Origin: Podarcis vaucheri
Lineage: Eukaryota
Length of the DNA stretch: 64,000 nt
Strand: one strand, 5' to 3'
NCBI GenBank assembly: GCA_965113315.1
Contig: OZ220368.1
The position numbers and the translations under genes are program-made. The notes under the pieces are model-generated. The model was not told where the DNA came from. It ran no database searches and saw only the letters and a list, made by a program, of their open reading frames with translations. This document shows positions 22,523 through 47,743 of the stretch, piece after piece (position 1 is the first letter of the stretch; every line of letters starts with the position of its first letter).

Positions 22523-25399
22523 TATCAGCAAAATCTGGCGCTTTCCAGCACTTTTTTTTGGGATAAAGTTTGTTCCTATTCCCTGCCCCAGTACCCTGCA
22601 GTTTCCCCCTAGCCACTGGTTGCAGGGGACGCTGCATGTTGGTATCACACTGCCAAGGAGGCACATCTGGAGACACTTTCTGTATGGAGGTCTCATCAGC
22701 ATCTAAATGTACATGGGCAGCTACACCCGCAGGATACAGTTATGGATCTGTTTATCGCCATGATTGCAAAAACACTAAAATGCTAATAGAACAATGAGTA
22801 ACATCAATAAACACAGTTAAGGGGCTGAGACAGGCTCAGTGGAACCAGCACCCTTTCATGCTTAGATATTCCCTCAGATGAAAAGGAACATTGAACATTT
22901 GCACATGGAAGAGGAAATGAGAGGAAATAAACCATTCATTAAAAACCTGTATGTTTTATCAGACCTGTCAAAGGTTTGGACATGCAAAGACACAGGGAAC
23001 GAGCATGGTCACAGAAGCTTCTAGACAAGCAAGGCTAGGAGAGCTACAGCATCCTTTCCCAATCCGGATACTTTCTAGAATGCCCAACATCCCTGCCTGT
23101 GCACATAAGCAAAATGCATGTAAGTGGGGAGCCTTGTCAAAGCAGATAACTAGGGTGATTTAAGAGGCATCAGAAATGCCCTTTTCTTTTATACTGTACC
23201 TTTGCCTCCAGAGTGCAAGAAAATGTAGGGAACCGTGTGACCGAGCCCGCTGCAACACAGCTTCCCTCCCAACAGCTGTTGAGTGGGATAGCGCAACATC
23301 AGCGGAGCTCCCATGCGCCATTTTGGAGCCCATAAATGCTTAAAAAAAAAAAAAGCCTTTAAAATCTTTATTTCTGCACTTTTGGCTCACTGACATCCTC
23401 CTCGGCCTCTGGGGAGGGTCTCATGATGAGCAACAAGAACTTTCCAGCTCTCTCCCATCATTCCCAGGTTTGAATCTATTTATTTATTTATTTATTTATT
23501 TCCTGGCACCACACACACAAGTCAATCGTGCATAAGTGGGGAAATGCCTGTACTAAGAAAGCCTAATGGATCTTCACCTTCTGAAGTGGTTTCTTTCCTT
23601 CCTAAGTTTTCTTAAAACCTTGCTAAACATCCTAAACTACTAAATCAGAGATGTGGGAGCCAGATGGATCTCCAATTTCAAAAGCATGCAGCACACATTA
23701 AAGCAGTGATCATGTATTTTTCATATTTTCATTTGCAACTTAGGCACTGTGTATGTTGTCAGGGCTCAGGGTATTTGTAAAATACATGTTTCATCCCTCC
23801 TAAGGGCTCCTTACTTCTTTAGAGGCTGGAGTGGTTTAAGAATAATGACATTTTGCTTTTGGTTTATTAATTTTTATTGTGCCCTATGGTCACATTTTCA
23901 GGTTTTTCTCCACCAAACTTAAGGAGCAGAAATTTGAGAAACAAAGCCTTTGTCCTCTTTGATTTCATGCTGATACAAACTTCTTTTAAAAACCCTGAGT
24001 CATGTGATTAAATTGTGAAGGGTGGTAATTTGATTTACTGTTATTTTCCAAGAAATATTTAAACAGAAGTTATCTGGGAACCCTATTAAAAAACAACAAC
24101 TTATTAGCCTCTGCAGGTGGAATGTGGAATGAGAGGAGAGGAACCCTTGTTTCATCTAAGGCTTGTGTAAAGGGCTCGCTTTGAGGTCGAAAAACAGTAA
24201 TAAATGATTCATTGTGTGAAATGTTCACTTCACATCAAGGGCTGAATCCTGAGATCCATAGAATGAATGGAAGATCAGAAAAAGGGGACTCCCTTGTCCC
24301 CCTTGCAGACAACTTCTCGACAAGACTTTCCTAGGGTGAGTGGGTTGTGGCATCTTCTTCAGTGGTATGGGATGCAGTATGAGGGTGTGGGGCTGCAATG
24401 GGAATCAGGAATTGCTCCAAATCAGACAGAAGCACATTGCAAGGAATCTCCTCTCCCTCACACTTTAATCTATATAGTAGCATGTCTAAGTCAACTCACA
24501 CAAGCCCATGAATATTTATTCGGTAAAACAACCAGTAACTAGAGCAAGAGAGCAGTTGGTAGCAGCGTTAGGAGAGATGAGTTCTCTTCACTTGAGCAAA
24601 AACAAGAATCCCCGTTTCTGGAAATGCTCTCTCTTTTTTAACCCTTCGAGACTTCCTGGGACAATTTGTCACCAGGGTTATTAGCATTTCTTCTGAGATA
24701 TTGACAGCTTGTCTTTCTTGCCTTCCAACCAGTGAGTGATTTCTTCACACAGTCGCCAAATACTGCCAAATCACCATGGTAAATGTATCGACAGAATCAT
24801 ATTAACAGCTGCTGTGCATTTACAGCACCGTAAGTTATACAGAGAGGCGGAAACACACAGGGAAATAAAGCAGCCCCAGTCAGCAGTAGTGACAAGCGTT
24901 TATTTAGCAGTTGCTGCCTGGAACTATTTTTTATGCTTTAATTGCTAATTGTAAGATCCCATAAAAGAGCTGCCTTGGACCAAATTATTTGTCATCCCTC
25001 AGAGCTGAGCATCCATATGTTAGTTACCTGGCTACACAAATGACTTACCTGGACACTGCCCAATAATATAATAAAGTGAGCTACCTATTAACACGATACA
25101 GAGGATGCCAACAGACTTAAGAGCTCGTGTAAGATAATCAAGGGAAGACCTGTCTTGTGACAGAGTGTGACCCAAATTTTGCCATCTTACTTTTGTTCCT
25201 TCTTGGCATTGCCACAATGCACTCAGGGTTGGTAAACAAACTGAGTCCCAGAGTTCCCTGAATATCTCATTGTAATGTCCAATGGGCAATCACTTATTTC
25301 ATTTTATGAATGTATATCCCATCCTCTAATGAAAACACATTTTCAGAGCAGCTTACACAAAGCAAGTTAAAAGTAACAACAGTGGTTCATTCCACTGCA

Positions 25400-28914: not shown

Positions 28915-29865
28915 TATATAGGAACATGGGAAGCTGTCTTAGGCTAAGCAGCTTAAAACAAAGCCAAGTTGTGGGTCCCGGTCCCCTACAGAGAGGATAC
29001 ACATAGATTGTGGCCGACACCAGGTGCACTTGGCTTCAAAGGCCAGTGGTGGGAGAACACTGGAGCCACAGTAAACAGTAATGAGTATGCAGCCTTCTAG
29101 AGATGGACCCTTGGTCCATCTAGCTCTGGGTGGTCCAATGCATGGCCCAAGGACCACACGCATCCCTCAGCAACGTGTGACCCCCCTCAGCCCTTGTGCC
29201 ACCTTCCCAAAGCAGGATAATGAAGGAGATGGGCTTTGGGACGGAGGCATGATTGATCTGACAGGGTTCTAGAGTCCTCCCACCTCCTTTCTAAAGCCCA
29301 GTTAGCACTTTCCTGGCTTTGGGAAGGCAATGCAAGGGTGTAAGCGTGTGTGTCAAATTTTGGCCTCACTTCTCCCACCCCAGCATGACAAGGCAGTGTG
29401 TAGCTCGTGGCTTCTGTGCCAAAGTACTTTTGCGGCACACTTGGTATGAAAATATGAGTCACCCTGACTAACTAAACTCTGCTTAACACTAGGGGTGGGG
29501 AACCTCAGGCCAGGGGCAGGCTTTGCTCTTTCAATCTTTCAGCAGAGCCCGGTACAAGGTCAAAATTCAGTGCCCCCCACCTCTCACCTTCCATTCTGCT
29601 TAATTCACTATGTCATAGTTGCAATGCCCTTCAGAACCCCCTAGGTTCAGTGTCCAGTGCGGAGGAACCAGTAGGGCTGCCATAAATCCTCCTCTGTTCA
29701 GGCCCAGGGGCCAAATGCCTCTCTATCTGGATCTTGAGTTCCTCCTCAGCCACGCCCTCTGTCCCAAGGCCACAACCCTCACCAGCCCTGCTCTGTGGCC
29801 TCCTTGAACAATTCTGGCTGAGCAGAATATCCTTGGACTACAATAATGCCTCATGTTTGTCTGAA

Positions 29866-29981
29866 AAGCAGCCCTCCAGGGTTTCAGACAGGGAACACTC
29901 CCAGACCTACATGGAGATGCTAGACATTGAACCTGGGTCCTTCTGGCCACAAAAGAGATGCTCTACCACAGAACTATGGCC
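29866..29981 (-). mobile_element. tRNA-derived SINE head (Squam2-like)
   Basis: Minus strand gggccatagttctgtggtagagcatct...ccaggttcaatg...ctgaaaccctggagggctgc contains A/B boxes. A matching 3' part of the same family lies at 33885-33991 (+). Confidence 0.7.
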
Positions 29982-31049
29982 CTACCTCATATACTTTCAT
30001 ATACCGCTCTATGAAAGTAGTTCTCTATTAGTAAAAATGTGCTTCTATCATTCTTCCTACCTAAATTTGTCTCCTGCTTTGTACAAGGGATTTCCAACCT
30101 CCTCACACAGGCCCCGTTTTCTAGTTGTTTCAAATTTATTAAGAAGGCAACCAAATAAGAGGGTTGTGGACAAAGTTTTCAGATGCATGCTTAGCATAAA
30201 AGGAGAGGCAAGCAGTGGGAAAGGGAGCTTGGCAGCCCATTACGGGCAGCGTGAACATCAGTGACAAGGCATCTGGCAAAAGCTCCTGTGAGCAAGCCAG
30301 GACCAGGGGACCAGCCTTTTCACATCTGGTTAAGTACCACTAAACCCTCAGACAAGCTGCCTAATTATGACAACACTTCTGCTGGAAAATTAGCATGCTT
30401 GACTGACCATGCTCAGAGGAAAGGGAGGGCGGGAGCAGCTGGCAGGAATGGGCAGTGCTACTGAAAATGCCTAGGAGTGGCTCCTGAAATGTAATCTAGA
30501 GCATGGTTGCCTTCAGAACCATGGCCCAATGGCATGCTTCCCCACTGTTCTAGACTTTCTCAAGCAGCTGTCACCAATAATGGCTATTTCCCACACCACA
30601 CCACAGCTTATGGTGTGGAGCAAGGTGAGTCTAGTTCACACGCGCAGATGGGGAAAAGAGGTTAAGACGGGACTAAGTTTATACAATACTGAAGCCACAT
30701 ATAAAGAAAGCAAAACTGAAAAGGATCAGATAAACGTTGAAATTATTACCTTTTGCAGGAAAAAATACCCAGAACTAATTCTATGTGAAACTTTTGTAGG
30801 CACTCCAATGCTCAGTTCTAAAGATATAGAACCACTGCTCACTAGCACCACATACAATGGGATTTTATTTGCAAGAAAGCATGTATTGCTGCCACATTGC
30901 TTCTTCCATCAAGAGCCACACCAAGAATTCTTGTCTGGTCACTTGGGCATCAATGACAAAGGCAAATTTTAAAATTAGTTATTGATGCCCAAGTGACAAG
31001 ACAAAATGCACTGATTCTGATGAGAATTCTACCACGGGAAACTCCTGAT

Positions 31050-31230
31050 AGAGGGTGTAGAGACCTAGGCTTTTCTTGATCAGTTATGAAGATCCCTGAG
31101 TGATCCTGAGACAGTCATTCTCTTACACTCTAACCAACCTCACAGCTTTGTTGTGGGACAGTAAGGGGGAGAGAATGGATCACTCCTTTACTACCCTGAA
31201 CACCTTAAAGGAAGAAAATGATATAAATGC
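31050..31230 (+). mobile_element. Degenerate CORE/Squam3-like SINE
   Basis: gagacctagg...gagtgatcctgagacagtca...ctaaccaacctcacagctttgttgtg...ggaagaaaatgatataaatgc. Confidence 0.6.
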
Positions 31231-31409
31231 AATTAGCAAGTCTTAAAAACTGAAATGTATTGAGGCCCAGTCTGGAGTTCTGTTTAATCTAACTTTATTA
31301 GTGGGTGCTCACAATGATAGCTTGCTGAGTCTTTTACCAGTGTCAGCGTAGCATACAGCCTACATCTCTCTCTGAAGAAAAAAATATCTAGATACAGTTA
31401 TCCATGGCC

Positions 31410-31520
31410 TAGTTATATCCAAGGTAGATTACTGTAATGAATTGCACATGGAGCTGACTTTGAAGACAGTACAGAAATTACACCAGGATCAAAATGTGAT
31501 GGCCAAATTGTTAACTGGCA
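31410..31520 (+). mobile_element. L2 LINE ORF2 remnant
   Basis: Translates SKVDYCNELHMELTLKTVQKLHQDQNVMAKLLTG, resembling the L2 motif SRLDYCN.L..GLP......LQ.VQNAAARLLTG. A further L2-like remnant lies at ~32425-32560. Confidence 0.75.
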
Positions 31521-31876
31521 ACATTCACTATGAACATGCAACTCCCTGGAGGCACGTATGACATATTTTGTTTGTGAGGCTCCATCATTGCCTTGAAACT
31601 TACCTTTGCATCTAGGCTGGGATGAACATGGAAGGATATTGAGTTGAGCTGTTTGATGATACTAGCTGAAACTGAAATGTTCGGTTTGCTGCAGAAATAT
31701 AGTCACTGGATTGTTGTTTTAACCATTTGGTTGCAGTCATTGGTTTATTTTTAAGATTAGGTTCATTGTCATTTAAAAATGAATTTTGTATACCAAACTG
31801 TGATCCTAACAGATGAAGGACACTACCTATGCTAAGTGAAGTGAAGTGAAGTAAAGTACTATGCTAGTGTCTACTA

Positions 31877-32395
31877 CAGTGTTTCCCAAACGTTTTTGGG
31901 CAACGGCACACCTGTTTACCGGGAAAAAATCTCACGGCACACCACCATTAAAGCCCCGCCCCGTGACGTCAGCGCGCAGCGTCACGCCGGGAGGGACGCA
32001 CAAAAGTGAACGTTTTTTCCCTTCCCCTTGCCGGGGTGGGAGGAGGCAGCAGAGCGAGGGACTGAGGGACGGCGGCAGCTGAGGCGGCGGCGGCTGTTGT
32101 GGTGGTGGCGGCGATAGCGGGCGGAGGAGGAGCCGTCGCCGGGATTTGCTGCTGCTGCTGTTGCTGCTGCTGCCCGGACATGCCGGCCTCCTCCTCCTCC
32201 GCTGTCTCGCGCTCCTCCCTTTTGCGCGCGCTGCCCCGCCGCTCGGCACCACCACCGCGGAGCCGCCCCCGGCTCGACGCGGATCCTCGCCGCCCCGCCT
32301 CTTGCCGCCCGACTCGCCCGCCTCCCTCCCACGGCACACCAGCCGGTGTCTCACGGCACACTAGTGTGCCGCGGAACACCGGTTGGGAAACACTG
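31877..32395. mobile_element. Young non-autonomous hAT (Charlie-like) element, 519 bp, with CpG-rich cargo
   Basis: TIRs cagtgtttcccaa / ttgggaaacactg. Perfect 8-bp TSD GTCTACTA at 31869-31876 and 32396-32403. Four direct copies and one inverted variant of the subterminal acggcacac motif. Confidence 0.95.
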
Positions 32396-33884
32396 GTCTA
32401 CTAGTCTGCTTCCAAGTACTATTCAACATGGTGGTTTGGGCATTTAAAGCCTTGATCAGCCTAGAATCTGAGTAGCTGAAGGACTATCTTCTCCTATATA
32501 AGCCTGTCTGTCCAAGTGCTTCTGCCACATGAAGTTCAGTCCACAGCTACCAGAAATGAGACAGGGTCTTTTCTGGGATGGGACTCAAACTTTCAACCTT
32601 GTTCTCATATTGTGTTCATCAACTGCTGGCATTATACTCTTTTAGGTGGCCAGCACAATCTCAAGTGTCCTTTTGATGGCATCTGTTTTTATTGTTATTT
32701 CTTCTGGTTGTTTTTAATATTTGTTTTTGTTTGCCAGATTGAGACCTCAGCAATAAGGCAAGATACAAACCTAGAAGAAAATAAAGAAAAATAGCTACAA
32801 ATGTGTGGTTCCTAGGCTACAGGCCAATACCAACAGGTGATTCCAAAACTCTACCGGCGGTGATGGGGAATTTAGATCAAGTAGATAAGATATTAGGAAA
32901 CATCTCCTGTAACAGATAAGAGATAAAAAAGTAACATAAGGAAATTATAGAGTCTCCTTTCTTTGATGGCTGCAAGAGTAAGCTGAATAAGGGTCAGAAA
33001 GCAGTGGTTTAGGTATAGCAAAGCCCACCTATGTGTTAGGGATAAGCCTATTAGGTGCTTGAGATTCTATCCCACCACCTCCCACAGTTGCCTTTTTATC
33101 ATTTTAAAATTTGCATTTCAGAACCAGGAAAATGTTTTACAATATTTAGTGACAAACTATATATAATTTGCACATAGAGATCAGGAAAAAAACAGACACA
33201 CAGACATTCACTTAGAAGAGAAAGAAAGTTACCCAATATTTTATTGAAAGTAGGTGCTAAGTACAATAATCTGTGCTCTGCTAAATCTTATCTATATACC
33301 CTCTTCAGACAGACATCCAGTGGTATCTGGAAACATGTTTTGTGCCTTTGAGATTATTTATCATGACAGAAGAGAAGTTTGAATCTTAGACAACTTGCTT
33401 GCAGATTTATCAAAGTCCCTGCTTCCATGGATTTTTTTTTAATCATACATCCTTCTGAATGCTCCACTCACCATTGGACATTGTAGACACATTTCACAGA
33501 CTCCAGGAAAATCACAAAGCAATAGTGTCCCTCCTGAAGAGAAAGAAACTGCTAAGCCTCTTGTGACTTACCTGTTGGAAAAATCATTGTCAAACTACAG
33601 GGTTGATCACAGTAAGAAAACTGTACAAGCCCAGAATGTTAGACACCCACACGCTGGCATGATGGAGAATGAAATATCTTGCAACATCAAACAGTTAAGT
33701 GAAAACATTTCCACTTCGCTCTGAACATCCTACACTGCCTCAAATTAGGATATTTGTACGTACCCAAAAATAAATATTTTGCCAGCTGCTGATTACTTAG
33801 AAGAGGCTTTAGACCCCCAGAGAGCTTTGGAGAATTCACAGCAGAAACAGTTTCAACAGCCACATCTATAAGATCAGGGAAACA

Positions 33885-33991
33885 GGGAATGTGAAAGACT
33901 CCTGCCTGAAAGATGCTGCCAGCCAGAAGAGACTACAGGGGTAGATGGACAATTTTATCTAGTACAGTATAAGGCTGCTTCCTTGTTCCTA
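33885..33991 (+). mobile_element. SINE 3' half (Squam2-like, CR1-derived tail)
   Basis: gactcctgcctgaaa...gctgccagcc...tagatggac...gtataaggctgcttccttgttccta. Confidence 0.6.
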
Positions 33992-35194
33992 AATTCTTCA
34001 GCCCTGACTCTTGTTGTCATCATTCAAGTTCTCATGATACAGGTGAGGCATCACTGGACACCACTCAAAAAAATAAGGGAACTTTGTTACTGCTTGGGTA
34101 GCTAAAGTTAAAGGTAGTCAGTAATGATGAATACTAAAATGTAATTTTAGTTACATTTCAATCCACAAAAACAATAAATGTGCACCTGTATAGTGCTGTT
34201 TTGGGTCATGACCAGAAGGGTTTCCTGCTCCATCATGTGGTCCACAAAGGTAATTTTTAAGAATGAAAGAGTAATTCCCAACTCTGATCTATGAAATTAT
34301 GACCCGCACAATACAAAAAAAAGGAAGGAGGAAATAATTTCTTTTAACAGGAGGAGATACTTGCATAATTGACACTGTTGGGGGAAAGGCCTTGCCAATT
34401 ATTGTAAGATGCCCAAACTTGCATATTTCCCAAATTTCAAGAAGGATCAAAGTTTTATCATTTTTCACCAAGAAAAGATGAAGTATCACAGCTAGCAAAG
34501 CTAGCTTAGGGCCAGAATAGATGTGTCACAGGAGATCTCCCAAGATTTTTGTTTATTTTAATGTGTGTGTGTCAGTGTCCTGATATTTATTGGAGCTGTG
34601 ATAGCAGCAAAGTTTTTTTGTTTTTTTCCAAAAAAACCTTTTTTCTACATACCATTTCCCTAATTTACATAACCTATTATAAAGGTGCATATACTGTACC
34701 TATATTTTCCCCCTATACTGGTGGTAGTAAGGGACAAGTGGAGGGAGTTTAGATCAGAAAAACTGCATGGAGGGAAAAGGCTGAACATCTCCTCCTACCA
34801 AACACTACTACTGTGATCAACACTATGGCTGCTTTAAAATTAACTCACACCAAAAATCCCATGGCAATCCCATGGTGGATCTTCCACATCATGTCTGCTT
34901 TGGCCAGATAGAGAGAAAGGGTGATAGAATTGAAGTGAAGCACTGGATCAGGACTGGGGAACATTCCCCCCCCCCCACCATGGGCTGCATTTCCTTGAGG
35001 GTAAACTATTGGGAGAATGCCAATGGTGGGCAGGGCCAGAGTCAACTCTCACACACTCCCCTCTCTTTCACACACAAATACACACACCACTTCAATTCAT
35101 CTATCCAGTCACACATATTCACCACTCACCATCCCACCCAGCAAAATATATCTATCCACATATAAACAATTGTATGGAACCACAAAGCTGCAAC

Positions 35195-35313
35195 TTGAGA
35201 AACCCAAGATCAAAGGTTTGATTCCCCATTAAGGAACAGCTGCATATGCCTGCATTGCAAGGGGCTGGACTAGATGATCCTTAGGATCCTTTCCAACTCT
35301 ATGACTGTTTCTA
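35195..35313 (+). mobile_element. SINE or CR1 3' tail remnant
   Basis: cctgcattgcaaggggctggactagatgatccttaggatcctttccaactctatga is a CR1-type 3' terminus, preceded by a B-box-like ggtttgattcc. Confidence 0.7.
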
Positions 35314-38061
35314 TTAAATAGGTGTTTATGCTTGTGTGTTGAGAACAACTGCATTCATTCCATGTAGTAATTCTTGGTTTGAGGAGATATGTTGTTTGGC
35401 TGAAAGAGCTGGAAGAGAGAATTCTTATGTTGCTGCTGCAGAGAAAATTGAGCACCACGACAACAGGTTTCTATGCAAGGGGCTGTTGCTTTTTTATCAG
35501 GACCTAAAATGTATCATGTACAAAGAAGAGAAGGAGATAGTATTAAAATCCTTTGCTAGTTAAGAGTATTAAGAAGAAAAAGAAAAACTGAACCCAAACA
35601 AAGAGCACAAACCAAATCTATACAAGCCACTTCTTACTGACTCTCAGGTGCCGAGGGTCATAGCAGAAGTATAAACAGGAATTTCTTCCGAACAGAGGCA
35701 TGGGTTGTGCTACATGTTAGGGAATGAAGGGCTAAAGGCAAGCAAAGCAGAAAGTAACCCACTTAAATTAGACAGAAGGGTTAACTGCCTATTTCACCTT
35801 TTGATCAGGTTCAATTTGGCCTGTTAATCAGTCAGCCATGATTAAAGCAAGAATATACAGAAGCATCACATGGTTGGGTGTGTCAGGAAGGAAGCTAAGG
35901 CAGCCAGTCTTGTTGTTTCAAGGTTTTCTTTTAAAGGCGAAAAAGAGATTTTACGGTATAGGAAGGAAACTGAATTCTTCGCTTTGCCTCCAGGAATGCA
36001 GTGGATTCCTCACAGCTTCCAGCATTACCCCAGCAAAAATGTCTCTTGCGTCTGCTTCCTTTGTTTCAGGTTTTTTTCCCCTGCATTCAAAACTCCATAA
36101 CTACTACAGCCTTTGTGGATCATCTAACTTGTAAAACCATAGTAACGTCTTTCACTTCCAACCCCAAACTTGAAATGACCCTACCATTTGATAAATTAAT
36201 CTACTCTTTCCAAACAGGAATCAATTTTAGCTATAGCCTAATTGGCTAGTTTCTTAGAAAGCAAAGTGCTTTGAGTTTCCACATTCTGTACTGTACTTAA
36301 TCAGATAATTTCTGCAACGAGGCAAAACACAACTGCTTTCTTTCTTCCGTATAAATGGGAGCAGATCAGTGGACCATCTAGTACAGTGCTGTGTCCAGGG
36401 AACTTCATGTTAAGCCATGAAATCATCCAACAGCCATTAAATCTGCAGAAATAATGTAAAGTATAAAGAAATACCACAGTCTGCCTGTTTTTGCTGCTTC
36501 CTTTGAGTTGTGAGCAGGGCCGGACAAATCTCAGGAACCTGTTGCCTGGGTACCTAGAAAGTTTGATACCAGCACATTGAAATATTTTTAAAAATAGAAA
36601 ATAAAACCAGCCCCGTGCAGGGTGGAAGTTTTATAAAAGACTGATGTATGCAAAGTATTTCCAGTTCCAGTTATAACAAATGCAAGTAAACATTATTATC
36701 ACTGTCAGCGTCTGCTTTGTACAGTGACTGGTAAACAAAAAAGGGGCCTCCAGCTTTATCTTTCAAAACAGAAATGAAAACTTGAGAGGATACCCTACAC
36801 TATCCTGGAAAGCCTGGACAAAGCCAAACAGAGCATAAGCGGTCAAAACAATACTAGTCTTGATCCTTCTATGCAACTTAGAAGCGTAAATAAGAAGGAA
36901 ATGACCATTCCACAGAGCTGCATAGGGGCTCAGGTGAGGCAAGAGAAAATAGCATTTTCACAAATTTCAGACTGAAAATGGAATGTATTTAAATGAAGGG
37001 AAAAGGTGCTAACAAATGAAGATACTGAAGCAATAAAAAACAGAAATCATATTTATCATTCATAAATGTTTATCTTCTCTAACAGGCAATGACCAAATCT
37101 GTTGTAGATGAGATATAAGTTTTAACCAACCAGTTGTTACTTGTCATTTCCCCTTGCAAATGGAAGGGTTGTTACCTCATCTGGTCATCTGACATACTGG
37201 GTTGTGCACAACCTGACTTTGGCACCAATAAAATCTAGTACTTCTATATCTATATAGTCAAATGGAATGAGAATAAGGGAAAAGACAAACACGTATTAAA
37301 AATGTGTGGTTCTAGAATATCGAGTAGTATATGCTACAGTTCCTGGCTGGCTACTCTGCTCCTGCCATTTGCTGCATTGCCAATCATCTCTTACTGGAAA
37401 ATGAAGCACCTCAAAGCCTTGAGACAAGAAGAGGTTATGTAGCTTCCATCTCAAGCACACAGCTACAGGTTGTCTTCCTGCCCAGCAGTAACAGGAGGAA
37501 ACAGAAGTAAAAAGATAGGCAAATAGTTCACCTATACACAACATCACTACTGCCAATGCTTCCTCCTGCCCCATAGATGAGTACCTGAGATGGAAGTGTC
37601 CCATCTCAGTAACCAGTTGTGTGCTTCTGTGACAGAAGAAAGGAGAAGATGCAGCACAATACCAAATAAATTATCCAGTCTTCGCCATCCTCACAAACTA
37701 TCAATCATCAGGAACATGGCCTCTGCACCTCCTAACTTTGAGGAATTAAAGCTCATCGGAGGCCACAAGCACCCCTGCTTTATTTGGTTCTAGACTCTTA
37801 TCAGCTCCTATAAAAGGGAGCAGGAAAAGGCCACTGGCAGGTTAGTAAATGGGAGCAGCCTAAACTATAAAAGACCATTACATAATGTCCAGCAGAAAAC
37901 CTTTAACAACACATTCAAAATGGCATGGAGAACAGGCTTTTGTCTTGGCTTTTTTAAAACAGATTTGCAAATATAGTTAATATTATCTGTGCTGTTGAAA
38001 TCCACCAGGTATTATTCAACTAACTTTTATTCAGGAGACCTTTTGAAATTAATTGACCTAA

Positions 38062-38269
38062 TTTAATAAAATTAATAATAATGATTTATTTATACCCCGC
38101 CTATCTGGCTGGGTTTCCCCAGCCACTCTGGGTGGCTTCCAACAAAATATTAAAAATACATTAAAACATCAGTCATTAAAAACTTCCCTAAACAGGGCTG
38201 CTTTCAGAGGTCTTCTAAAAGTCAGATAGTTGTTTATTCCCTTGGCATCTGATGGGAGGGCATTCCACA
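38062..38269 (-). mobile_element. L2 LINE 3' fragment nested in a palindromic repeat (38008-38332)
   Basis: Highly similar to 58305-58480 (tataccccgcctatctggctgggtttccccagccactctggg...cttctaaaagtcaga). The flanks rejoin into an element like 6720-6840. Confidence 0.8.
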
Positions 38270-40602
38270 TTTAGCCACATTAATTTCAGTGGGTCTACTC
38301 TGAGTAAAACCTACTTGAATACCACCCATTTTTAATTCAAAAGATTGGGTGCCTAGAAATGTAACTATTTAATGCAAATTATCTGGTATGCATGCATTTC
38401 CCCTGCAAATTGTCATGCTTGTTAACACAGTGCATCAACAGCTGCCACTTGGCTTTTTTGCCATGAATAAACATCACATCAGAGGTCTTCTGAGGGTGGG
38501 ATCTTCTACTGCAGTAGAAAATGGTGAGAAGGGCATTTCTAAAAACATTAGCATTCTAAATATTTTAATGTGCCTCATATGGGTCAATCTGTACATCATT
38601 ATCATATATATGCACACCTCTTGCAGAAGCATACTTAGTCCTTGTCACATCATGTCCCAAATGCCCTGGGCCTTTCCCCAGCTTCAGGTTATAGGCACTG
38701 CTGCAGGTCCAATATAAAAGCAAATGTTACCTAAATCACTGTTTGCATTCCACACAAGCCATCAGCATTTGTCAAAATTCAAAATGTAGCCAGATCCTGC
38801 CACAGAAACATTTCAGTGACTGCAAGGCTTGAGGAGCAGAGGCTGCAAACTGTTTATTCATTTTAAAAGATCTGATAAAGATGCCAAATTAACATCATTA
38901 AACTCTTGTTGAGTAAAGTATTCAGCTCATGAAGCAGCAGCTATCAACACTAGCCCACAGCACTAGCACGGAAAATACTTCAGTATTCAGAAGGAGGAGG
39001 AGAACCGAACTTGCCGTTAACTTGAAATATGTAATTATAACAATCCACAAACTACTTACACCAGCATATTCTCAATGAAGTTCTATTGCAGTCTATAGGA
39101 ATACGCCAGAGTAAGATGTTCATCAACTGAAATCTCTGTGAATTACATGTGTTACAGTGATTAGTTAAACTTAACATCCAGGGCAGATCCATCTGACACA
39201 CACTTTTCTTTCACAGTAAGTACACAACTGTAATGATGCAATTTCACACTGTAGAAATGATGTCACCAGGGTTTTCAACAACAAAAAATCCAGTTGTAAA
39301 ACCTTCAAGTGACTTTTCTCTTCTGAATAATACGGCGAGGGCAAAGTTCATTAGCTATGATATGTACAAACATGGCAGTAGACAAAAGATTGCGAAATTT
39401 GAGGTAAAAAACACACGCCTGCTTTCCACAGGAACATTAATAGAAAAATAATAGATTTACACTTTTTGTCTCAAAAAACCTTACAACATGATCCTGTACA
39501 TATATACCAATGTAGCTCTTACTCCCAAGTAGGTGTGCACAGGATTGTGGCAATAGCAGTCTTCCTAAATAAAATGTTGCTTCATCTCTTTATTGTCTCA
39601 CACTTCCTTGCACTATGTGTACAGAGCAGGGATAGCCAGCCATCGGGAGACAACTATTTAACTTAAGTCTTCTGCAAACATCTGTTATTTATTTGTTATT
39701 CCTAATATTTATAAATTATACCCTGCCATGAGGCACCCAAGGCAATGTTCACATTTTACATTCCATTTTGTTAATAGAATATAGAAAGGGGTTGCTATAT
39801 TAAGAAACCGTACCATTATTGTTTTCTTATTACTGAATGGCAGCTATTACCAAAGAGTGTACTATCCATGGCTCACTATGAGCAGAAAGATGCTCGTGGT
39901 ACTAAAATTCACCAAACCCACCTGACAAGCCACTGCACACAAATAGTTCACTATGCAGAGCATTTCAAAGTGGTATCTATGCGGCAACCATAATATGCAA
40001 ACAACCCCTCATTTATGGATAGAATAGTGCTCTGCTAGCTATCTGAGTCTTTACAGATTTTTTATAATGTGAATCCATAATGATACAGCAGCTACATCTA
40101 ATCCACTACCAGTAACATTATATTTTGTGTTCACTTAAGAGATGATGCAAGTATAGTTCTGCTGTTCTTTGTTTATGTTTTCAAATGGGTCTGGAAACTG
40201 CGACACTCACCACTAAGAATGTCATCAGCTCTGTCCAATAAGTATCAAGCAATCCCGCAATCCCATTTCACATAAAATTCACCATTGCCGTAGATACACT
40301 ACATGAGGAGAACAGGACGCTTTCCCTGTGACAAAACTGCATTTAAATGCTGGCGGAATGTGATATCCCCGCAACAGAAATGCTTCCTTGAGGAAAGGTA
40401 CCTAGTCACCCTGCAACGATTAAGTAACAAGTATGCATTTACTGCATTGTTAACTGATCTTCTCAAAAGGATATCTGTTTTATTTATTCTAACTAACTTT
40501 TACACAGATTTTATAGTATTACATTTACCAATAGTCTTTAGGGATAAATGAATCGAGAGAAAACCTTGTAATTACCATGGATGTTTGCTTAAGGTGACAG
40601 AG

Positions 40603-47118: not shown

Positions 47119-47743
47119 ATCTATCATTTCGGTCCTCGGGACTGGATGAGGTCTCCCGGTCCGAAATGAGGCCAGAGACAGCGAAGATCTTTTTCCCCGT
47201 GTCATCGACTTTGAGGGAGCCGGGGGAGCCAGATGGGAGCTGGGCTCCAAACTCATACTCCTTGCCATCAGCGTCTGAGAAGCGAAGGTGGGGAGAGTCA
47301 GTGTCATGGCAGTTCTTCAGACGCTTGGCAGGTGTAAAAGCTGACTGGTAACTCTCCCTGTCCTCAGTGGAGGCAAAGGGACGGAAGGCCCCAACGCCAC
47401 TGTGGTTCAGCATGCTGATTGGGGTGCAGTCCAGATTGGGGGGAGCAAACTGGGGGTGCAGATGCAGCAAGGAAGGTGGAAAATCACGGTTGGTGAATGC
47501 TCCTGGCACACCACCTTGTCGGTGATACATGGAGGCAAAAGTATAGGAGCCATTAGTGAACGGGATGTGCACATCCTTGTCCACCGATACTGGAACACCA
47601 AAGGGCCTTGGCTGCTGGCAAGGGATGGAAGCATCTCGGCTTGCTTCAGCGGTAGAAGCGAGAACCATCAGGGCTGGAGATGCCAGAGGATTGGGAAGGT
47701 AGGAGGAGTTTTCCATCTTGAAGGCTGCCCGGTGTAAGTCCAT
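47119..47743 (-). CDS. RNF220: RING finger protein 220 (E3 ubiquitin ligase), first coding exon (exon 2), 208 codons + 1 nt
   Basis: Translation MDLHRAAFKMENSSYLPNPLASPALMVLASTAEASRDASIPCQQPRPFGVPVSVDKDVHIPFTNGSYTFASMYHRQGG...SSSPEDRNDR matches the vertebrate RNF220 N-terminus as I recall it. ATG at 47743-47741. The exon ends at the canonical donor AGAT|GTAAGT (+ strand acttac 47113-47118), phase 1. Confidence 0.97.

Follow-up and report, generated by a model that had tools for sequence, protein, structure and literature searches.

Introduction

The closest described likeness to the site considered here is to the skipped terminal or cryptic last exons, i.e. the cryptic last exons (CLEs) repressed by SFPQ (PMC7997972) and the skipped terminal exon (STE) class (PMC10227441). 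As in CLEs and STEs, an acceptor and a canonical AATAAA are found in the 5' part of a very long intron, in a gene with a neural role, and the predicted product is a short N-terminal peptide. Unlike the CLEs, the RNF220 exon, as read from motifs and contigs, starts with a full donor motif and contains a second donor, and it lies 13.5 kb from the upstream exon, whereas CLEs generally lie <10 kb away (PMC7997972).

The second related system is the vertebrate recursive-splice (RS) exon (PMC6224609, PMC5126111, PMC6110456), with which the RNF220 site shares the long intron, the YAG/GTAAGT motif (here and below a slash marks the splice junction), a branch-like A at -19, a donor 100 nt on and an in-frame stop. 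It differs from the vertebrate RS-exons in that the contigs display no saw-tooth, the rebuilt donor is the weaker one by U1 pairing and a poly(A) signal follows. Efficient recursive splicing requires the rebuilt donor to outcompete the downstream donor (PMC6224609), and recursive exons and cryptic last exons have been treated as separate classes (PMC7997972).

In human RNF220 itself, 3'-end qRT-PCR has validated a poly(A) site within an intron, at which cleavage is raised in proliferating MCF10A cells (PMC3491381; repeated in PMC11208690); the gene and the intronic cleavage are the same as in the case described here, while the human site may be a different one. U1 telescripting (PMC7997972, PMC3491381, PMC10227441) offers a likeness by layout only, the AATAAA being preceded, at 230 and 330 nt, by two U1-matching sites. 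The full-length RNF220 isoform is found mainly in brain (PMC12296455). Here we report that the motif cluster in RNF220 intron 2 is real and that, rather than a recursive site, it probably marks a poly(A) exon within the intron.

Results

RNF220 Exon 2 and Intron 2

The stretch of DNA analysed (the window, 64,000 nt) corresponds to C25:55738001-55802000 of a 1.61-Gb genome and carries RNF220 on its minus strand, where exon 2 was located from the sequence and from protein matches:

47860-47119, minus strand: RNF220 exon 2, 742 nt, with the ATG at 47743, 208 codons plus one base, and the donor AGAT/GTAAGT

The 208-codon frame is 97-100% identical to the RNF220 N-terminus among the best 120 of 1114 matches, and a Lacerta agilis model is matched by the frame 5' of the ATG as well, with 100% identity over residues 5-251; the source is, by this match, probably a lacertid lizard. 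Human RNF220 exon 2 likewise measures 742 bp, and it is the exon from which circRNF220 is formed (PMC8549339). Exon 3 and two later exons were placed via PF15926; with neighbouring genome stretches joined, intron 2 comprises 202,962 nt and ends at exon 3 (C25:55582156), the human intron 2 comprising 201,442 nt (PMC6110456, S1 table). Intron 2 is the longest gap among the RNF220 exons located and is very long, as are the introns of vertebrate recursive sites. The candidate site lies 13,547 nt into it, and the setting proposed in the preliminary description, 13.5 kb into RNF220 intron 2, is borne out by this distance, by the protein match of exon 2 and by the location of exon 3.

Other exons were noted in and around the intron. 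A 75-nt in-frame cassette exon (YRSDSQGG...FPL; C25:55662519-55662445, minus strand), 122.6 kb into intron 2, occurs in many squamate, turtle and bird RNF220 models and has to be accommodated by any recursive model; its donor, TCT/GTAAGT, has T at -1, as does that of exon 2. At window-relative -14078 to -14140 (minus strand), 21 residues match the N-terminus of a Lacerta agilis RNF220 model (95%) that is without exon 2 and joins the cassette exon, which implies another exon within intron 2. Window positions 54677-54633 (minus strand), within the CpG-rich segment 52001-56000, match the opening residues encoded by a Podarcis lilfordi gene model and are the probable exon 1 and promoter.

Splice-Site Motifs

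The candidate site consists of the following elements, all read from the sequence:

33572-33593, minus strand: first 3' splice site, with a branch-like TTGAC (A at 33590, position -19), a short pyrimidine tract and a CAG ending at 33572

33566-33574, minus strand: CAG/GTAAGT, with GTAAGT starting at 33571; a consensus donor in unspliced RNA, becoming GAT/GTAAGT after joining to exon 2

33552-33554, minus strand: in-frame TAG that follows CKSQEA in a join of exon 2 to 33571

33534-33550, minus strand: second acceptor-like site, AG/G at 33534/33533, with 12 pyrimidines of 16 and no yTnAy within 45 nt

33466-33474, minus strand: downstream donor-like ATG/GTGAGT, junction 33472/33471

The branch-like A, the two acceptors, the abutting GTAAGT and the downstream GTGAGT of the preliminary description were all recovered at their minus-strand positions, and both the AGAT end of exon 2 and the regenerated AGAT/GTAAGT match the sequence. 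The acceptor abuts the donor that joining to exon 2 would rebuild, and the donor 100 nt downstream would define an RS-exon, as in a recursive site. The frames are likewise as had been described, with the 100-nt exon adding CKSQEA and a stop and the 62-nt exon giving an immediate stop; inclusion of either would bring an in-frame stop, as is expected of a poison exon.

The first acceptor is of middling strength: 9 of its 16 positions are pyrimidines, compared with 12 at the second acceptor, 16 at the exon 2 acceptor and 12 at the exon 3 acceptor, and its AG-free zone measures 21 nt. Donors were compared by the energy of their duplex with the U1 5' end, a crude proxy that is not a MaxEntScan score. 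Pairing is strongest for the unspliced CAG/GTAAGT (-12.1 kcal/mol), followed by the downstream donor (-10.3 kcal/mol), the native exon 2 donor (-6.8 kcal/mol) and the regenerated donor (-5.4 kcal/mol), i.e. by this proxy the rebuilt donor fails to beat the downstream donor.

Chance Expectation of the Motif Cluster

Across intron 2, the bare YAG/GTRAG core has no strand enrichment (16 sense versus 15 antisense), and YAG/GTAAGT occurs three times on the sense strand and once on the antisense strand, with about 0.95 expected by chance. A filter requiring at least 9 pyrimidines of 16 and an AG-free zone of at least 15 nt, set to the values of this site after it had been seen, retained 6 sense and 1 antisense YAG/GTRAG, 2.7 being expected from 40 order-4 Markov copies (P about 0.055). 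When a donor 30-250 nt downstream was also required, only the present site remained on either strand of the intron. The 40 Markov copies gave 0.35 expected composites per intron for the GTRAG core, 0.10 for GTRAGT and 0 for GTAAGT, or 0.125, 0.05 and 0, respectively, with a stricter donor. The composite is uncommon, yet within chance for a scan of many windows; because the rules were set post hoc and many windows were scanned, the layout alone is a modest signal.

A Poly(A) Signal Downstream of the Site

Vertebrate 3' ends are formed by cleavage 10-30 nt after AATAAA, and on this basis the following elements, which had no place in the preliminary description, are read as a poly(A) site:

33240-33245, minus strand: AATAAA poly(A) signal, about 330 nt past 33571

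33449 and 33265 (TGTA) and 33443 (ATTAAA), minus strand: upstream elements

33184-33228, minus strand: downstream element, U-rich then GU-rich, ending in a T run

The context of this signal was ranked with a downstream-element score of our own, settled on once the site was known: T plus TG/GT minus A, counted 15-60 nt downstream. The AATAAA at 33245 scores 32 and ranks second of the 164 sense AATAAA in intron 2, for which the median is 6, the best of the 182 antisense contexts scoring 33; it also has the highest T and TG/GT counts among the 23 listed for the first 20 kb. AATAAA as such occurs once per 1.2 kb. A canonical poly(A) signal followed by a U/GU element is thus found within the intron, as in the skipped terminal exons.

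Coverage by Sequencing Contigs and Reads

Coverage over 29500-38500 was examined in four of the 24 listed runs (X1, X4, X14 and X16); five more presumed-RNA runs (X2, X3, X5, X6 and X7) and six near-identical runs of unstated kind were not used. X1 (organism A, study P1) and X4 (organism B, study P2) are Logan contigs that are RNA by guess only, and contigs cannot show the end, strand or level of an RNA. The related organisms A and B, about 97% alike in intron 2, are too close to inform on conservation. Selection of the runs for sequence from 33000-34200 biases the coverage found here, though not the edge that they share at 33252-33258. The contigs are:

33571-33252: X1, depth 9.2

34201-33551: X1, depth 10.6

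34189-35167: X1, depth 5.5

35690-35927: X1, depth 4.0

35909-36288: X1, depth 5.2

33914-33258: X4, in one piece, depth 6.3

34895-35046: X4, short contig

In both of the two informative runs a contig ends just before the AATAAA, by 7 nt in X1 (33252) and by 13 nt in X4 (33258); positions with an AATAAA starting 5-45 nt downstream make up only 5.4% of the examined 9 kb. X1 depth falls with distance upstream (9.2, 10.6, 5.5, 4.0 and 5.2, then 0 in the five bins at 36423-37927), and beyond the AATAAA it is 1.08 in 32811-33111 and 0 in 32510-32810 and in the five bins at 30102-31606. X4 is also at zero in 36423-37927, 32510-32810 and 30102-31606. The X1 profile has the shape that would be expected upstream of a minus-strand 3' end. 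The segment 32801-36500 is single-copy within 264 kb, except for one 56-nt repeat match near 35250.

As a possible source of the shared edge, internal priming was rejected: no A-run of at least 7 lies at the contig end points, the nearest being an A9 at 33440. The remaining bins are repeat piles, with copies at 31900-32500, 35240-35310 and 38030-38310 that are deep in all four runs. X14 and X16, which are raw reads from organism H, gave almost only such piles, at <95% identity, and 0 reads in the five bins at 32811-34315; because organism H looks distant, these two runs are uninformative either way. In the organism A contigs, 3 differences fall in the 320 nt of the putative exon versus 57 in 2248 nt of flanks, a sign of constraint too weak to use (Poisson P 0.04, Fisher P 0.11).

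The second X1 record aligns from its sixth letter, at exactly 33571, through to its last letter, with five leading letters unaligned. Next to the junction, the last letter of exon 2 does not agree with the genomic one, so a join to exon 2 would clip exactly five; the letters could derive from exon 2, or from an allele, an error or an adapter. Given about 10 alignment ends, a clipped start would fall by chance on 33571 itself with a probability of about 1%, and on one or other of the predicted boundaries with a probability of 3-4%. The record hints at use of the 33572 acceptor. An unspliced X1 contig also crosses 33572 (depth 10.6) and breaks 21 nt past the site, and X4 crosses it unbroken; with unspliced depth over 33572 equal to that of the exon, only some of the molecules at best would be spliced to the site. 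Neither 33533 nor 33472 coincides with the end of any piece or joint listed for X1 and X4, whose contigs continue unbroken through 33472 to 33252-33258. No poly(A)-tailed read turned up, and the contigs come to an end ahead of the predicted cleavage position. The contig evidence for a poly(A) exon is suggestive only.

Discussion

The combination of acceptor, poly(A) signal and shared contig edge is best accounted for by a minor alternative last exon of RNF220, entered at the candidate site and predicted to end at the intronic poly(A) signal at 33245-33240, a reading that we adopt tentatively and rate somewhat short of an even chance:

33215-33571, minus strand: putative alternative last exon of about 350 nt, inferred, with an estimated 3' end

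In the proposed mechanism, polymerase would pass exon 2 and 13.9 kb of intron 2, and in a share of transcripts the 3'-end machinery would then cut 10-30 nt past this AATAAA. Together with the poly(A) signal, the 33572 acceptor would define the last exon of about 350 nt, which would be joined to exon 2 in some molecules, others being cut first and staying unspliced. The spliced product would comprise the 208 N-terminal residues and CKSQEA (214 residues), without the PF15926 domain and the RING, and would be predicted to escape junction-dependent NMD because its stop sits in the last exon. Cleavage would as a rule be kept in check through telescripting by the U1-matching sites at 33571 and 33471, such that most transcripts continue to exon 3; the downstream donor at 33471 is, from its motif, a possible U1 site guarding the poly(A) signal.

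The motif CKS[QH]E was found in 0 of the 305 proteins fetched, and the tails that follow exon 2 in short protein records were mostly intron read-through. The lizard exon may be the counterpart of the human RNF220 intronic poly(A) site, perhaps at a different position: in three supplements of PMC3491381 the position of the human site gave no match, and the intronic primer of that paper has no match with up to 4 mismatches in the 264 kb of lizard sequence. If an alternative last exon is indeed made, early exit would set the amount of full-length RNF220 without changing promoter use, a putative N-terminal fragment without the RING would be produced, and the human intronic cleavage would appear to have a lizard counterpart. 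An intronic early-stop exon is an already known kind of gene control; in the literature search, no paper on an RNF220 last or poison exon was among the matches listed.

The poly(A) site might instead be used on unspliced RNA, or on an intron under removal, with AG/GTAAGT a bystander or no more than a U1 binding site. Consistent with this, X4 reads through 33572 in one piece and X1 is unspliced for 3 kb upstream at depth 4-11; composite terminal exons and spliced polyadenylated introns are common in human data (PMC10227441), and the 0.95 copies of YAG/GTAAGT expected by chance amount to about one per intron. This view, which we consider unlikely though deserving of some weight, does not readily accommodate the X1 record that starts exactly at 33571 behind five unaligned letters, nor the break in the unspliced contig 21 nt past the site.

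Recursive splicing, as the preliminary description had it, would take exon 2 to 33571 and the regenerated donor to the cassette exon or exon 3, with polyadenylation as a side exit. The composite of a 203-kb intron, a branch-like A at -19, a 21-nt AG-free zone, a rebuilt GTAAGT and a donor 100 nt on is the only one of its kind in the intron; the strand bias of the filtered YAG/GTRAG motifs and the X1 contig break at 33571 are also compatible with a recursive site. However, coverage past the site is neither higher nor continuing in X1 or X4 (contigs, of unstated library type), and in place of the saw-tooth at 33571 that had been proposed as a test there is no upward step, the depth ending 320 nt later at the poly(A) signal. 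The weaker U1 pairing of the regenerated donor, by the crude proxy above, also counts against the reading, as does the poly(A) signal, which is absent from typical RS-exons (PMC7997972). In human, RNF220 intron 2 holds 18 of the 36,870 motif-only putative recursive sites genome-wide, but RNF220 is neither among the 342 junction-supported sites nor among the saw-tooth sites (PMC6110456, supplementary files 1-12), which shows how rarely such motifs are borne out. RNF220 gave no match in four supplements of PMC10156609 or in 11 supplements of PMC7997972 and is absent from the main texts, as available, of bioRxiv 10.64898/2026.09.10.750672 and of PMC6349408, and the literature search returned no paper linking RNF220 with recursive splicing. 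Poly(A) libraries, if X1 and X4 are such, could not show recursive intermediates, and the reading keeps a place among the alternatives for that reason. Of the preliminary description, use of the 33572 acceptor is hinted at by the contig starting at 33571, and stepwise removal of intron 2 finds no positive support: no saw-tooth is seen in the contigs and the rebuilt donor is the weaker one by U1 pairing. We regard a true recursive site as rather improbable.

It is also improbable, in our view, that the site has no functional feature at all, i.e. that chance motifs coincide with patchy pre-mRNA or DNA contigs that end nearby by accident. The near equality of the bare motif on the two strands (16 versus 15), the 0.05-0.35 composites expected, the presence of an AATAAA every 1.2 kb and the reliance on only two low-depth contig sets would all fit this explanation. 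It has more difficulty with a contig edge on which two organisms from two studies agree to within 6 nt, beside the poly(A) context ranked second in the intron, and with a contig start that falls on the acceptor.

A hybrid of these possibilities can be envisaged, in which a recursive-splice exon doubles as a last exon and the rebuilt donor competes with the poly(A) site 330 nt downstream. A single intermediate would then either re-splice to full-length RNF220 or be cut into a short mRNA encoding the N-terminal 214 residues. We consider this arrangement doubtful, with a small probability at best. A further intronic poly(A) exon would be ordinary, and only this choice between re-splicing and cleavage would surprise a specialist; the site is compact enough for a minigene test of it.

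The 100-nt or the 62-nt exon might act as a poison cassette between exon 2 and exon 3 and trigger NMD, and the in-frame stops that both introduce, together with the good matches of the second acceptor and the downstream donor, agree with such a role. No listed piece or joint stops at either 33533 or 33472, the latter being crossed by both contig sets, although this weighs little given that NMD targets are scarce at steady state. Tuning of RNF220 dose by NMD through these exons, as previously suggested, found no support; if the exon is terminal, its stop is not of the NMD type, and we consider a poison cassette very unlikely.

Hardly credible, finally, is that CAG/GTAAGT is the donor of an upstream alternative first exon of an N-terminally shortened RNF220: an ATG lies 16 nt before it in frame with exon 3, it is a consensus donor when unspliced (-12.1 kcal/mol), human RNF220 has a start in exon 2a (PMC12296455) and an annotated human intron begins 11.4 kb into intron 2 (PMC6110456), but no exon-3-bearing protein among the 416 fetched begins with this peptide, lacertid short isoforms map elsewhere and contig depth does not drop after 33572.

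Other Motifs in Intron 2

Eleven of the 16 sense YAG/GTRAG motifs lie in the first 47 kb of intron 2 (window 42372 to -93; binomial P 1.5e-4, post hoc), as do all three sense YAG/GTAAGT (33571, 25048 and 20201). Such clustering might be due to U1 sites in the early part of a long intron, or to exons that are not annotated. At window positions 20240-20195 (minus strand), just behind an apparent repeat copy, two donor-like motifs lie 36 nt apart, the second being a YAG/GTAAGT whose AG-free zone spans 29 nt and which is followed by no donor over the next 250 nt. The top-ranked and third-ranked AATAAA contexts of the intron are at window-relative -98764 and at window position 24904, respectively (minus strand); the latter AATAAA is 144 nt after the YAG/GTAAGT at 25048, a layout similar to that of the candidate site with a poorer acceptor.
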